Origin: Lytechinus pictus
Taxonomy: Eukaryota
Direction: 5' to 3'
Assembly (NCBI RefSeq): GCF_037042905.1
Contig: NC_087251.1
Coordinates: 30,134,001-30,198,000, forward strand
Length of the DNA stretch: 64,000 bases
Of this stretch, positions 44,974 through 53,900 are shown piece by piece; within the stretch, counting starts at the first letter, position 1; each line of letters starts with the position of its first letter. Below the pieces are notes generated by a model. That model did no database searches, was not told the DNA's origin, and worked only from the letters and a program-made list of their open reading frames with translations. A program made the position numbers and the translations under genes.

Positions 44974-47900
44974 ATGGAATCCTCTCCATATCAGAAAACT
45001 AAAGGAGGACTTTTCCCAAGTGCATCTGCAATCAAAACAACATCAGGAAATGAAGCGGCAGGTGAGACTGAGAAGAAAATGAACCACTCATTCATTATTC
45101 AATCCACTCATTTAATGTCTAATGTCAATGAACAAGGTTATATCCAACATTCAACAAGACTAACAATGTCCAATCACCAATGACAAGCTAAATTCTATTG
45201 GCAATTCTAATCTAAGTGCTCATGTTCAGTAAAACAATGCTGGTTGGTCACGGCATTATCTAGACCGCGACCAATAAATTATTTAAAAAGATCTAGGCCC
45301 TATTCTTAGATAAGAATTAAGCCCCAAAAGGCCCAAGGCCAAACCGGACATTTTTGACAACGAGAAAAAAAAAATTATTACGTACGTACGTAGTAATTAT
45401 TACGTACGTACGTAGTATTTATTACGTACGTACTAATAAGCACCTCGCCGAACCTGTCGAGGAACCTGTATATATAGAGTTTGGATTAATATATGGATGT
45501 CAAATTTTTCCATTCATTTATTTCGATTTCCCCGCCTTTTGTGACTCCTGGGTGTGACTACATATTCACATTACAGCACATTGAATGATCGCTATGTGAG
45601 TTTGCTGGACGATATGGGGGGCGGGGGTCACCTCTCCCACGTGTGATCGAGCTTTGTAGTCACCATGTGGCGTGGCAAGAATCAAAATTAACTATATTGT
45701 ACGGTCAAGAAACATCGTCATAAAAATCCAGGGGCCAGCATAGGCAGATCCACTACGTGGTAAAGGGGCCACCCCTCCTCCATTGGCGACGCGAAAAGAG
45801 GGGGAAAGAAAAGAAAAAAAAGGAGAGGGAATTAGGGAAAGGAAAGAGGCAAATAACAATAGGGAGACGAGTGAATGAAAATAAGGTGAGGGGAAAACTT
45901 TGAAAATAAAAAAATCTTGATCATGCAGCTACATAGTATATAATTTTTTTGCTCTGGCTCCGCGCTCTCGTTGCCTGTTATGAGATAGGCCTACATATCT
46001 TGCTCAACAGGCTGAAATGGAGATAAACAAAACATATTCAGCTCAGACGTCGAGATTTATTTATTTTGTGTAATTTACAAATTCATTTTTAAGTGCTCTG
46101 TATTTTTTTAATGGTCTGCATCTCGAAATATCTCAGCTCGAGCTTCGCCCACGCGCATTATTCATGTGGGAAAATATATCCTTTTCATGAAAATACGACT
46201 AGAGAATATAGGCCTATCCTATTTTAGGATTTAAATTTCAAACTTTGCGCACACATCAATCTGCCTATATCGTGATCATAATTATTTTTAAAAAGTGCTT
46301 AGAATGTCCAGTTTTTATGTCCGAATATCAATTTTTTGCTTTTTTTCGGGCACTTTAATCTTTAAAAGGGCACCGACAAAAGTTTAAGATTTAGATAGCA
46401 GTATAACTAAACAATTTATTGATGCGAGCGGAAAAAGTTTGAGATCGAGATCTAAAAACTGAATATTATATTTTTTAATTATGAAAAGGATAGTTATCTT
46501 CCTTTATGAATAATGCGAGCGCGAAGGAATACAAAATATGCAACTAAACAATAATTGATGCGGCGAGCGCAAAGCACGAGCGGAAAAAGTGTGAGATTTA
46601 AGAAAACGGGATACTCTATTTTGTTACTATATTTATTTAACCTAGAAACGGGACATTCTAAGCACATTTTGTCATCATATTAAAAGGATAACTATTATTA
46701 GTTCCTCTACCTAAGGGCGAGCTGAAAATATTGTTGATATTCCGATCTGAAAAAAGAGACAATAAGGATTATGAATTCATAAAAAGGATTTTTTTTTCAT
46801 TTAATAATAGGCCAAATGAGAACGCAAAATTTTGGAATTCATACAGAAGTATTCTCACTAACCAAAATGCGAGCGCGTAGTGCTAGCTGATATATTTTTG
46901 CAATCAGACCTGAACAAAAGGGATTTATTTAGCATTTAATTATTACGTACGTACGTAGTATTTATTACGTACGTACGTAGTATTTATTACGTACGTACAT
47001 AGTATTATCACGTACGTACGTAATATTTATCACGTAACGTACGTAGTATTATCACGTACGTACGTAGTATTATCACGTACGTACGTAGTATTATCACGTA
47101 CGTACGTAGTATTATCACGTACGTACGTAGTATTATCACGTACGTACGTAATATTTATCACGTACGTACGTAGTATTATTACGTACGTACGTAATATTTA
47201 TCACGTACGTACGTAATAAGCACCTCGTCGAACCTGTAATCTTAACAGATCAATGACAGTCGGACTATAGATTTTGACTACTTTTGATGGATGTCAATCT
47301 TTCGATTTCCACACCTTTTGTGACTATAGATCTGCTGGACACTTAAGGGGGGGTCACCCCTCCCATAATAGTGTTGGCATTATAATATTGATACATTATG
47401 TGATCGAGCTAAGTCAGTTTGTGGAGTAACAAGAACATAAAAATTAGCATAATGTACGTTCATAGAAACATTGCTATTATCACCAACATCCTAAAAGATT
47501 TTGTTTTAAGTGCAGGGGTCAGCAAAGGCGGATCCAAGAGAAAAGGACAGCGCCCCTGTTACACCCACAAATGTAATAATCGCCCACAAATGTAATAACG
47601 CCCACAAATGTAATAACACTTTACCCACAAATGTAATAACGCCCACAAATGTAATAACACTTTACCCACAAATGTAATAATTTCACCCACAAATGTAATA
47701 ATGCACTTTACCCACAAATGTAATAATTTTTGATCGCCCACAAATGTAATAATGACTTTACCCACAAATGTAATAAATTTGAAGGGATTTTTGGCGAATC
47801 CGTTCTAAACTAAAATCCTATAGTAATGCGTTCATATAGCACAAAAGTGCAAAGTCTTTTTTCCAGACCCGGTTAATAAAACATTATAGTATAAGTCCAA

Positions 47901-50900: not shown

Positions 50901-53900
50901 ATATTATAGTTTTTTAAACAACCGGGTCTGGAAAAAGACTTTGGACTTATACTATAATTTTTTAAACAACCGGGTCTGAAAAAAAAGACTTTGGACTTAT
51001 ATTATAATTTTTGAAACAACCGGGTCTGGAAAAAAGACTTTGGACTTATATTATTAATTTTGAAACAACCGGGTCTGGAAAAAAGACTTTGGACATGTAA
51101 TATAATTTTTGAAACAACCGGGTCTGGAAAAAGACTTTGGACTTATATTATAATTTTTGAAACAACCGGGTCTGAAAAAAAGACTTTGGACTTATATTAC
51201 AATTTTTTAAACAACTGGCCAGGTCTGAAAAAAAGACTTTGGACGTATATTATAATTTTGAAACAACCGGGTCTGAAAAAAGACATTGGACTTGTACTAT
51301 GATGTTTTATTAACCGGGTCTGGAAAAAAGACTGCACTTTTGTGCTTTATGAACGCATTACTAAAGGATTTTATTTTAGAACGGATTCGCCAAAAATCCC
51401 TTCAAATTTATTACATTTGTGGGTAAAGTCATTATTACATTTGTGGGCGATCAAAAATTATTACATTTGTGGGTAAAGTGCATTATTACATTTGTGGGTG
51501 AAATTATTACATTTGTGGGTAAAGTGTTATTACATTTGTGGGCGTTATTACATTTGTGGGTAAAGTGTTATTACATTTGTGGGCGTTATTACATTTGTGG
51601 GCGTTATTACATTTGTGGGTGCAACACCCCCCCCCCCTTCCCCCTATTGGCGGCGCAATAAGAAAACTTCGGGACTCAAAAAGAAAAAAAAAGGAAAGGA
51701 GAGGGTAAAAAGAAATAATGAAGACGGGTCACGAGTGAATAAAATGAGGGGGGCGGTCGAAGACTTTGAAAAAGTAATCTTTCATGTCAATTTATAAAGG
51801 TTGATATGGAGCTTAAAATATTCAAGTCAGTACACAAACATATTCCATTTCAGACATAGAGCATTCATTATTTTGTCTGATATGCACTCGCATTATTTGA
51901 AACGTGAACTAGGTCCTTCTTCGTGTATTCCATAAAGTTCTCAAGATGGTCTATTGTTCAGGTCTTATTGTAAAAAAATATCAACTAGCACTGCGAGCTC
52001 GTGTTTTGGTTAGTGAGAATACTTCTGTATGAATTCCAAAATTTTGCGTTCTCATTCGGCCTGTCATTAAATTAAAAACTAGGTTTAAAAAATATATAGT
52101 AACAAAATAATCGAGTATCCCTTTTTCTTAAATCTCACACTTTTTCCGCTCGTGCTTTGCGCTCGCCGCATCAATTATTGTTTAGTTGCATTATTTGTAT
52201 TCCTTCGCGCTCGCATTATTCATAAAGGAAGATAACCATCCTTTTCATAATTAAGAATATAATATTCAGTTTTTAGATCTCGATCTCAAACTTTTTCCGC
52301 TCGCATCAATAAATTGTTTAGTTATACTGCTATCTAAATCTTAAACTTTTGTCGGTGCCCTTTTAAAGATTAAAGTGCCCGAGAAAAAAATGCAAAAAAT
52401 TGATATTCGGACCTAAAAACTGGACATTCTAAGCACCTTTTTTTATAATTATGAACATGATATAGGCAGATTGATGCGAGCGCAAAGTTTGAAATTTAAA
52501 TCCCGAAATAGGATAGGCCTATATACTCTAGTCATATTTTCATGAAAAGGATGGTTATTTTCCCACATGAATAATGCGCGAGGGCGAAGCTCGAGCTGAG
52601 ATATTTTGAGATGCAGACCATGCATTAAAAAAAAATACAGAGCACTTAAAAATCAATTTGTAAATTACACAAAATAAATAAAAGCTCGATGTCCGAGCTG
52701 AATATGTTTCGTTTATCTCCATTTCAGCCTGTTGAGCAAGATATATGTAGGCCTATCTCATAACAGGCAACGAGAGCGCGGAGCAAGAGCAAAAATGCTG
52801 CATGATCAAGATTTTTTTATTTTCAAAGTTTTCCCCTCACCTTATTTTCATTCACTCGTCTAGCGCCCTATTCTTATTTGCCTCTTTTTAAAATCCTTTC
52901 CTTTCCCTTCCCTCCTTTCCTTTTTTTTTCTTTCTTTCCCACTTTTTTCGCGTCGCCATTGCAATAGGGGAGGGGCGGCCCCTTTACCACCTGGATCTGC
53001 CTATGCTGGCCCCAGTGGATTTTTATGACGATGTTTCTTTGACCGTACAATATAGATAATTTTGATTCTTGCCACGCCATTAAACTGACTACGAAGCTCG
53101 ATCACACGTGGGAGAGGTGACCCGGCCCCGCCCCCGCTCTCCCCGTATCGTCCAGCAAACTCACATAGCGATCATTCAATGTGCTGTAATGTGAATATGT
53201 AATCACACCCCGGAGTCACAAAAGCCCTCAAAAGGCGGGGAAATCGAAATAAATGAATGAACAAATTTGGCATCCATATATTAATCCAAACTCTATATAC
53301 AGGTTCCCCGACAGGTTCGGCGAGATGCTTATTAATATTACGTACGTACGTACGTACGTAATAATACTACGTACGTACGTAATAAATACTACGTACGTAC
53401 GTAATAATTACTACGTACGTGTAATAATTACTACGTACGTACGTAATAATTTTTATTTTTTCGTTGTCAAAAATGTCCGGTTTGGGGCTTCGTACTTAGA
53501 CCAAAAGCTTCAGTCTCTGTATTTTGGTTGTTCCGCTGAACTGCGTTGGCTCACTCACCAATACATATGAATGTATGAATGGGGATTATAGTAAAATGTC
53601 AGAAATTGTTGAATAAATCCCCAGAAACGACGGTTATTCCTGTCTAATCTATTCTATGGTCAGTGATGGTGGAACAAACAACTTCCGCTTAGCCTAAGGC
53701 TAAGTAAAACTAGTATACCCAGTTGTTGTGTGTCCGGACAGGTTGTGTGTCCGGACGATCAATTTTAGAAAGTCATTTGGAAAAAATTACAAGCGAAGTT
53801 TCATCAATTTTTAGTACAAAATGTTAGGAAATATTATAGAGAACAAAATAGAAGATGATTACAACTATTGAATTCGTATTTTTAGTGTAACCCAAAGACA

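Follow-up and report, generated by a model that had tools for sequence, protein, structure and literature searches.

Tandem arrays within long terminal inverted repeats (TIRs) are the defining feature of foldback transposable elements (PMC3169594, PMC4079207). The sea urchin case cited in PMC4079207 is that of the TU elements; in the same paper the majority of foldbacks are assigned to Mutator and a few to P. Tetris and Tm1, with target-site duplications of 8-10 bp and 9 bp, are placed with Mutator, and Galileo is placed with P (PMC4079207, PMC3169594). Drosophila FB and Tetris, the nematode element Tm1 and sea urchin TU resemble the locus described here in their composite long TIRs, in tandem arrays whose number of copies is unequal between the arms, in a non-coding middle and in a target duplication.

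The locus lies in a 64,000-nucleotide stretch of the Lytechinus pictus genome (NC_087251.1, positions 30,134,001 to 30,198,000), called the window below, and all coordinates refer to it. A sequence-only reading had described a doubly nested foldback of about 8 kb in the first intron of NRDE2. Our analysis points, with a probability of roughly 0.8, to two nested non-autonomous foldback DNA transposons that are near-neutral passengers of this intron, the RNA duplex being a by-product of their mirror-image ends.

The host gene and its first intron

Two exons match the Pfam family NRDE-2 (E 7e-33 and 4e-15), and the predicted protein is 96% identical to the L. pictus NRDE2-like protein P0001. By homology the host is a Lytechinus-type NRDE2 gene, and the location in its first intron was confirmed by junction reads. 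The gene features are as follows.

about 44755, + strand: start of the NRDE2 5′ UTR (RNA reads)
44974..45061, + strand: NRDE2 coding exon 1 (tblastn with P0001; RNA reads on 44740-45091; exon 1-exon 2 junction reads)
45062..56479, + strand: NRDE2 intron 1, 11,418 nt, GT..AG (tblastn, junction reads)
56480..57120, + strand: NRDE2 exon 2 (tblastn with P0001)
54343-54703 and 55408-56230: two more hairpins of intron 1, with shorter loops

The donor GT of exon 1 is at 45062 and exon 2 begins at 56480 in a compatible phase; five RNA reads of run X12 join the two exons. Read depth on exon 1 was 2-8, on the expected strand, and transcription and correct splicing of NRDE2 were thus seen in related animals. 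Reads were aligned to 44300-46930, comprising exon 1, the unique intron start and the left arm. Of 13 listed sequencing runs, among which the best shares were 0.25 and 0.20, the mapping covered 4, with about 6% of each RNA run. In the total-RNA runs, which come from divergent animals, no reads fell on the unique intron start (45092-45267). Within 44846-45041, seven positions distinguish these animals from the window. Among the places that differ, A>G made up 1 of 21 and 2 of 23, which speaks neither for nor against editing in animals so divergent. No loose read end was found at 45310 among those listed, and the mapping is uninformative on whether those animals carry the insertion.

Since intron 1 measures 11.4 kb, about 3 kb of it remain 3′ of the foldback structure. 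Of its about 11,400 nt, 6405 lie in inverted repeats; upstream in the window the figure is 1537 of 44,700 nt. Intron 1 is much richer in inverted repeats than the remaining window, which tells against our main reading.

Architecture of the nested elements

Self-BLAST and arm alignments bear out the two concentric inverted-repeat pairs of the sequence-only reading. Its start about 280 nt after coding exon 1 agrees with an arm homology that begins 277 nt after this exon; in place of its bounds of 45338 and 53492, the probable ends of the outer element are 45311 and 53494.

45311..53494, no strand assigned: outer foldback element, 8184 bp, TA..TA ends
45339..46920, + strand: outer left arm, containing a 22-bp palindrome-cored array at 45373-45433 (self-BLAST, arm alignment)
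51951..53485, - strand: outer right arm, containing a 22-bp array at 53330-53455 (self-BLAST, arm alignment)
45305..45310, + strand: 6-bp target duplication CTTAGA, left copy
53495..53500, + strand: 6-bp target duplication CTTAGA, right copy

Once the inner element is taken out together with its duplication, 4110 bp of outer element remain. A global alignment of its arms including flanks gives 1378 matches and 83 mismatches (identity about 94%). Aligned by part, the arms comprise a tip (34 pairs, 94.1%), a main part (1171 pairs, 95.8%, 23 gap events) and an inner part (128 pairs, 89.8%). The left-arm stretch 46633-46792 (160 nt) has no counterpart in the right arm, and the 22-bp arrays are unequal, with 2.8 versus 4.9 copies. 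The left tip is irregular and carries about 19 letters more than the right tip (TAAGA.. versus TACGA..). TA at both ends together with a flanking 6-bp direct repeat occurred in 0.085% of random window pairs in 20,000 trials, a post hoc figure in that the pattern was spotted before the statistic was computed; any 6-bp direct repeat occurred in 9.3%. A competing 7-bp direct repeat, CCAAAAG (45324-45330 and 53501-53507), was rejected as target duplication, as the ends match more poorly and the end of the neighbouring MITE stays broken.

Contigs from runs X1 and X2 contained pieces of arms from the outer family, some of the left-arm type and some of the right-arm type, and no full second copy. The outer family is therefore a dispersed repeat whose arm differences predate the present copy, and dating the insertion by arm divergence was rejected for the same reason. 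The outer end pattern had no match in metagenome contigs. These arm differences also bear on an assembly or chimeric-read artefact, which would be conceivable in a repeat-rich region where no long read or contig among the runs mapped spans the structure. Arms created by such an artefact should be almost the same, but here 83 substitutions, numerous indels and unequal array copy numbers separate them; moreover, target duplications are found at three levels and both arm types in contigs of other samples. We therefore regard an artefact as extremely improbable.

The inner pair was likewise present as read before, but its inversion reaches further in.

47557..51626, no strand assigned: inner foldback element, 4070 bp, ends TGTTA.. 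and, on the reverse strand, TGTTG..
47557-48379 and 50500-51626: inner arms (self-BLAST, alignments)
47564-47780 and 51408-51620: 18/23-bp arrays, 10 + 10 units
47845-48290 and 50591-51333: 49-bp arrays, 9.2 versus 15 copies
48384-48967: 121-127-bp array
47553..47556, + strand: 4-bp duplication CCCC, left copy (right copy at 51627-51630)
49152..49292, no strand assigned: small MITE lying centrally in the inner element, with an 82% relative at 21942-22047
50028..50275, no strand assigned: second small repeat of the inner core, ends not fixed (relative at 4724-4923, 71%)

The terminal part of the inner arms pairs over 287 positions at 98.6% identity and includes one perfect run of 229 bp. The 49-bp arrays pair over 436 positions at 90.4%, in an ambiguous register, and 90 additional pairs show 94.4%. 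The core halves are degenerate and weakly inverted (local score 223, maximum of 300 shuffles 82), so the inner foldback extends deeper than had been noted. The length of the CCCC duplication is uncertain because it lies inside a C run, which is longer on the right flank.

The inner array pattern matched one metagenome contig (L001, unrelated to the window) as a 40-bp remnant and had no match in viral or prokaryote genomes; the inner end pattern had none in prokaryote genomes. The contig carries the 18-bp terminal array of the inner element with a TGT end at the same offset and is otherwise unlike the window. Similarity among both inner ends and the remnant stops directly outside TGT, and this recurrence of array and end hints at a widespread family.

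Two further repeats allow the insertions to be placed in relation to each other.

46937..47556, + strand: 21-22-bp array (46937-47219, about 13 copies), then part one of a decayed third outer-arm copy (maps to 45440-45752)
51627..51950, + strand: right CCCC, then part two of the same decayed copy, which resumes at left-arm position 45769
53497..53655, + strand: 150-bp MITE (53497-53646, ends TAGAC..GTCTA) into which the outer element inserted, followed by the right copy of its 9-bp duplication (53647-53655)
45298..45306, + strand: left 9-bp MITE duplication, 7 of 9 letters as in 53647-53655

Part one of the third copy aligned with a score of 98 (maximum of 300 shuffles 46, of 300 window stretches 81) and part two with 100-127 (shuffles at most 45). 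The DNA flanking the inner element on both sides is collinear with a single outer-arm copy, and judged by this collinearity the inner element has split the decayed third arm copy in two. At the outer boundary, the four letters after the left 9-bp duplication (45307-45310) are the first four of the MITE. In-silico removal of the outer element restored the MITE's left end with the 9-bp duplication exactly there; this 7/9 site is unique among 63,987 window positions, with a chance of 0.002 at the named place. A second MITE copy (30620-30759, 90% identity) is flanked by a perfect 9-bp duplication. Most likely, the outer element broke the left end of the MITE, whose two duplication copies now stand 8 kb apart.

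The decayed third copy between the arms, arms that differ by about 6% plus many indels, and the irregular left tip might also suggest that a single repeat inserted two or three times at nearby sites in opposite orientation to give the outer pair, or that the pair arose by local inverted duplication. The low depth of run X1 in the left-tip bin would fit family copies whose alignment begins near 45339 instead of 45311 (an estimate), but right-end-type copies would likewise align only from 45339. Separate copies are unlikely given that a single 6-bp duplication brackets the whole unit and that its removal restores a MITE with its 9-bp duplication. The single doubly nested hairpin described before is better read as two transposons with different end types and their own target duplications.

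From the nesting we infer an order in which the 150-bp MITE would have inserted with a 9-bp duplication and the outer element then entered 4 bp inside its left end. The inner element would have landed in the decayed arm copy that occupies the outer element's middle, either earlier or later than that step, and small MITEs would later have occupied the inner core.

Classification of the two elements

Both elements have the attributes of the foldback class: long TIRs, of about 1.5 kb in the outer and more than 0.8 kb in the inner element, arms built of modules that include tandem arrays differing in copy number, and target-site duplications of 6 bp (outer) and 4 bp within a C run (inner). No stop-free frame reaches 100 aa. 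None of the 39 frames of at least 55 aa matched a transposase family or passed the Pfam cut-off, with sub-threshold noise only, and a search of 44300-57200 against Rfam gave no family at gathering score. These outer and inner copies are non-coding, and no transposase remnant was found. The short arrays inside each end may be binding sites for transposases encoded elsewhere in the genome.

Short asymmetric tips, as in the present elements, are described for Tm1. In contrast to Tetris, Tm1 and Galileo, the duplications here are 6 and 4 bp long, the ends are TA..TA and TGT..ACA, and one foldback is nested in another. A Mutator-type origin, which calls for a duplication of 8-10 bp, was rejected: the direct repeats found did not exceed 7 bp at the outer ends and 4 bp at the inner ones; a TTAA-type origin was also rejected, with TTAA at the left tip only.

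The outer element shares TA..TA termini (45311-45312, 53493-53494) and a 6-bp duplication with IS3EU and GingerRoot, in one copy (PMC10045372, PMC6839031, PMC12730594). Published GingerRoot TIRs are 100-150 bp long, in contrast to about 1.5 kb here. Fungal IS3EU ends read TAYGG..CCRTA (PMC12730594); the right outer end, TACGA, agrees in 4 of 5 and the left, TAAGA, in 3 of 5 positions with this fungal consensus, which is not known to apply to every animal family. An IS3EU-like origin of the outer element is somewhat more likely than not on these end features.

For the inner element, TGTTA and TGTTG both fit the TGTNR ends of Ginger1 and Ginger2, and the GC-rich duplication, putatively 4 bp long within its C run, would be a second point of resemblance (PMC2836005); the relative in contig L001 begins with TGTAT, outside TGTNR. 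Ginger TIRs measure 40-300 bp as against more than 800 bp of arrays in the inner element, and the targets are CCGG/CCGT for Ginger1 and AT-rich RTATAY for Ginger2 (PMC2836005). The inner target CCCC is neither preference; the element is therefore to be called Ginger-like and not a member, and we give such an origin about even odds. IS3EU-like and Ginger-like elements are undescribed as foldbacks in the literature retrieved, in which no title dealt with Ginger-type or Strongylocentrotus foldbacks; Repbase and subscription papers were outside its scope.

The predicted RNA duplex and NRDE2

Folding covered arm-to-arm duplexes and smaller hairpins. It predicted 1356 + 788 pairs, about 2,100 RNA base pairs, with energies of -2188 and -1177 kcal/mol, in agreement with the capacity for more than 2 kb of duplex claimed before. 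In the pre-mRNA the arms could pair, the inner pair first, looping out about 8 kb. Perfect runs of 229 and 125 bp exceed the expectation from uniform scatter (P 0.0004 and 0.017), which points to arm homogenisation or to some constraint and tells against our main reading.

If the hairpin acted in trans, dicing would turn it into endogenous siRNAs that target the repeat families contained in the nested transposons. Such a role could draw on the strongly negative energies, on 31 perfect runs of at least 21 bp (1303 nt in total), on the transcription and splicing of the host gene in related animals, and on arm modules common to repeats elsewhere in the window (12297-12539, 27135-27819, 29394-29551). 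We consider it quite unlikely: intronic RNA is nuclear and short-lived, and better substrates are at hand in MITEs that form perfect palindromes, in this intron and elsewhere in the window. The separation of the arms, 2.1 and 5.0 kb, also counts against it, as editing of human Alu pairs peaks at 300-400 nt and declines with distance to about 1% (PMC526178).

Human Alu pairs and the palindromic Harbinger of Xenopus, an inverted-repeat editing substrate (PMC5625713), resemble the present case as repeat-derived intramolecular duplexes in pre-mRNA, whereas arms and loops here are far longer and the duplex is a predicted one. Hyper-editing of RNA does occur in sea urchins: the row for the purple sea urchin in a table of PMC5625713 gives 83,594, cited here apart from its column heads. 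Incidental ADAR editing of the foldback RNA is plausible; the folded intron might be edited to some degree and would then leave with the spliced intron.

The sequence-only reading had also proposed a feedback device, in which NRDE2-dependent nuclear surveillance or silencing of the folded NRDE2 pre-mRNA would set the NRDE2 level. The outer element indeed starts 249 nt past the first donor in the gene of a nuclear RNA-processing factor, and homologues of NRDE2 take part in C. elegans nuclear RNAi and work together with splicing and exosome factors (PMC6380277). But the arm mismatches lack strand bias: across six arm segments, 34 are G-U and 31 A-C in the sense RNA, and the arm changes have no bias toward keeping sense-strand pairing. 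Sense and antisense energies agree within about 1%, and donor and acceptor of intron 1 both lie outside the predicted duplex. The transposon ends and duplications are still readable, which suggests an insertion young relative to the gene. Human NRDE2 targets short GC-rich introns with weak sites (PMC6380277), in contrast to this AT-rich intron of 11.4 kb. Human and mouse NRDE2 are described as splicing factors (PMC6380277, PMC10351895), a small-RNA feedback therefore being without known wiring in deuterostomes, and PMC10351895 mentions neither autoregulation nor feedback. Such a device is highly improbable, and the evidence favours the neutral insertion that had been named as a fallback, near-neutrality being what these observations suggest.

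A regulatory role in NRDE2 would matter far more if true, but it finds no support here. Very improbable, too, is a nest of elements from two integrase-related lineages, IS3EU-like and Ginger-like, whose 2-kb RNA duplex in the pre-mRNA of a nuclear RNA-surveillance gene undergoes so much dicing or editing that a number of repeat families are silenced and NRDE2 output becomes tied to transposon control. The specialist interest lies in classification, as the end signatures suggest IS3EU-like and Ginger-like origins. The locus is a tidy example of nested foldbacks filling sea urchin introns, with three insertions readable from their target duplications.

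NRDE2 intron 1 and its two arm pairs

Within the window (35.6% GC), two long exons match Pfam NRDE-2, and the top of 11 protein matches to the gene product is the Lytechinus pictus NRDE2-like protein (96% identity), other echinoderms coming next; this marks the host as a sea urchin of the Lytechinus type. With this protein as query, tblastn placed exons 1 and 2, the phases of which are compatible, and five reads of an RNA sequencing run (X12) pass from 45061 into the start of exon 2. Intron 1 is 11,418 nt long and consists to 56% of inverted repeats, compared with 3% of the 44.7 kb upstream. 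An upstream gene has exons at 31976-37431 (+), one of which resembles Pfam DUF4619 weakly, at a level below the cut-off (E 8e-4).

Features of NRDE2 intron 1 and its borders
44974-45061, NRDE2 coding exon 1 (tblastn)
45311-53494, outer foldback element
47557-51626, inner foldback element, starting TGTTA, reverse-strand end TGTTG, flanked by CCCC on both sides
50028-50275, second small repeat of the inner core
53497-53646, 150-bp MITE, target of the outer element's insertion
56480, start of NRDE2 exon 2 (tblastn)

The sequence-only reading had claimed two inverted-repeat pairs in this intron, and both were found at roughly the places named. Arm-to-arm folding is predicted to form 1356 pairs in the outer and 788 in the inner element, which is far above chance expectation. 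The outer arms are ~94% identical, gaps excluded, and the left one carries a 160-nt piece without partner in the right. The terminal 287 pairs of the inner arms are 98.6% identical, whereas their 49-bp arrays reach ~90%, and weak inverted similarity extends on to the centre of the inner element. The arms differ from each other in many places, which speaks against an artefact. Perfect runs of 229 and 125 bp are longer than uniform scatter predicts and, together with the inverted-repeat richness of the intron, count against plain ordinariness; arm-to-arm conversion or constraint on transposase sites would explain this. In their inner part, the outer arms are akin to repeat modules at 12297-12539, 27135-27819 and 29394-29551 (73-96% over 20-65 bp). 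The outer arms appear to be assembled from widespread sub-repeats.

Ends and insertion sites of the two elements

Strong homology of the outer arms begins at 45339, and a 10-letter match extends further outward. The 6-bp repeat CTTAGA occurs at 45305-45310 and 53495-53500, with TA immediately inside on both sides. Random window pairs showed any 6-bp repeat in 9.3% and one with TA..TA in 0.085%, a post hoc test done once the pattern was noticed. The split MITE provides an independent check on these ends. Its second copy (30620-30759) is flanked by a perfect 9-bp duplication. The right-hand 9 bp of the MITE recur in 7 of 9 letters at 45298-45306, followed by its first four letters, a combination unique to this site within the window; therefore, the outer element split the left end of the MITE in a single event. 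A reverse match to this left end is located at 31458-31498. Without the inner element, the outer one comprises 4110 bp. TA..TA ends with a 6-bp duplication, the IS3EU/GingerRoot signature (PMC10045372, PMC6839031), are shared by the outer element, which was examined in one copy; an irregular left tip, a rival 7-bp repeat and the merely partial match to the fungal TAYGG motif of IS3EU speak against this assignment. Contigs of two sequencing runs (X1 and X2) contain right-arm-type indels as well as the left-only piece, and the arm types are therefore variants of the outer family.

Each inner arm comprises ten 18/23-bp units, a spacer and a 49-bp unit in 9 or 15 copies. The core is filled by degenerate 49-bp units, whose orientation changes near 49100-49300, at the site of a 140-bp MITE. 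The left flank of the element aligns with 45440-45752 of the outer arm and the right flank with the next part of it, from 45769, with scores of 98 and 100; control maxima were 46 and 44 for shuffles and 81 for the window. Being collinear with the outer arm, the flanks form a third, decayed copy of it, which the inner element interrupts. BLAST of a metagenome contig (L001) against the window gave 14 matches, all inside the inner arrays. The contig holds a 40-bp remnant (L001 103-144) with two 18-bp units and the TGT end at equal offset, and outside this solo end of the inner element's family no similarity to the window was found. The solo end adjoins an exon-like frame, and the contig is AT-rich. 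Ginger elements (PMC2836005) have TGTNR ends, as the inner element does, and 4-bp duplications, but their TIRs measure only 40-300 bp and their target preferences are other than CCCC. We call the inner element Ginger-like and do not class it as a Ginger member.

Other repeats of the intron and window

A repeat at 53999-54277 (+), single-copy within the window, matches the Alu domain of SRP/7SL RNA with its first ~50 bases (Rfam RF00017, 26.6 bits, E 3.8e-5, where the gathering score is 70); a tandem duplication of 92-94 bp that has CA tails comes next. It is a candidate 7SL-derived, Alu-like sea urchin SINE. Palindromic MITE-like elements lie at 54343-54703 (361 nt) and 55408-56230 (823 nt), the latter stopping ~250 nt short of the exon 2 acceptor.

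A dispersed element of 192- and 163-bp tandem units, presumably resembling Helitron-associated tandem elements, has three copies (13092-14553, 36166-37117, 57778-58899). The third interrupts a MITE in NRDE2 intron 2 with inverted ends at ~57318 and 59421. Inserted in the head of such an element is a near-perfect (95%) 222-bp palindrome (12867-13088) with TAG..CTA ends and a perfect 9-bp duplication. Another foldback-like region of 1.2 kb (42346-43536), made of 17-31-bp and 20-49-bp arrays, lies upstream of NRDE2, ~1.2 kb from the start of its transcript.

RNA duplex and class of the elements

The earlier interpretation holds in that more than 2 kb of duplex is predicted, but we saw no sign of selection on the NRDE2-strand duplex. 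Such selection should give an excess of G-U over A-C among the arm differences; in six segments, 34 G-U stood against 31 A-C on this strand, and the expected excess was absent. Predicted duplex energies (outer, then inner pair) are equal for sense (-2188 and -1177 kcal/mol) and antisense (-2199 and -1165 kcal/mol). Neither splice site is buried in duplex, since the donor lies 249 nt upstream of the outer element and the acceptor follows ~2,985 nt after its end. Human and mouse NRDE2 are described as factors that act in the splicing of introns that are short and GC-rich or have weak 5′ sites (PMC6380277, PMC10351895).

The inner arms are separated by 2.1 kb and the outer by 5.0 kb. Editing of human Alu pairs drops with distance, to ~1% (PMC526178), although the foldback arms exceed Alu pairs in length and the outer loop would become shorter if the folds are nested. 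Some editing of the NRDE2 foldback RNA is plausible, since hyper-editing occurs in sea urchins (PMC5625713). The 361- and 823-nt hairpins, with shorter loops and 76% and 83% of bases predicted to be paired, would be at least as good editing substrates.

No frame in either foldback reaches 100 aa, the 39 frames of at least 55 aa gave no Pfam match above cut-off, and an Rfam search of the foldback region returned no family above its threshold. By their coding content, both elements are non-autonomous. Foldback elements, with long TIRs and tandem arrays, form a structural and not a phylogenetic class, and have already been recorded in sea urchins (PMC4079207, PMC3169594). We consider it likely, at about 80%, that the structure represents nested non-autonomous foldback transposons that are probably near-neutral; both elements add to an already known kind, the foldback transposons.
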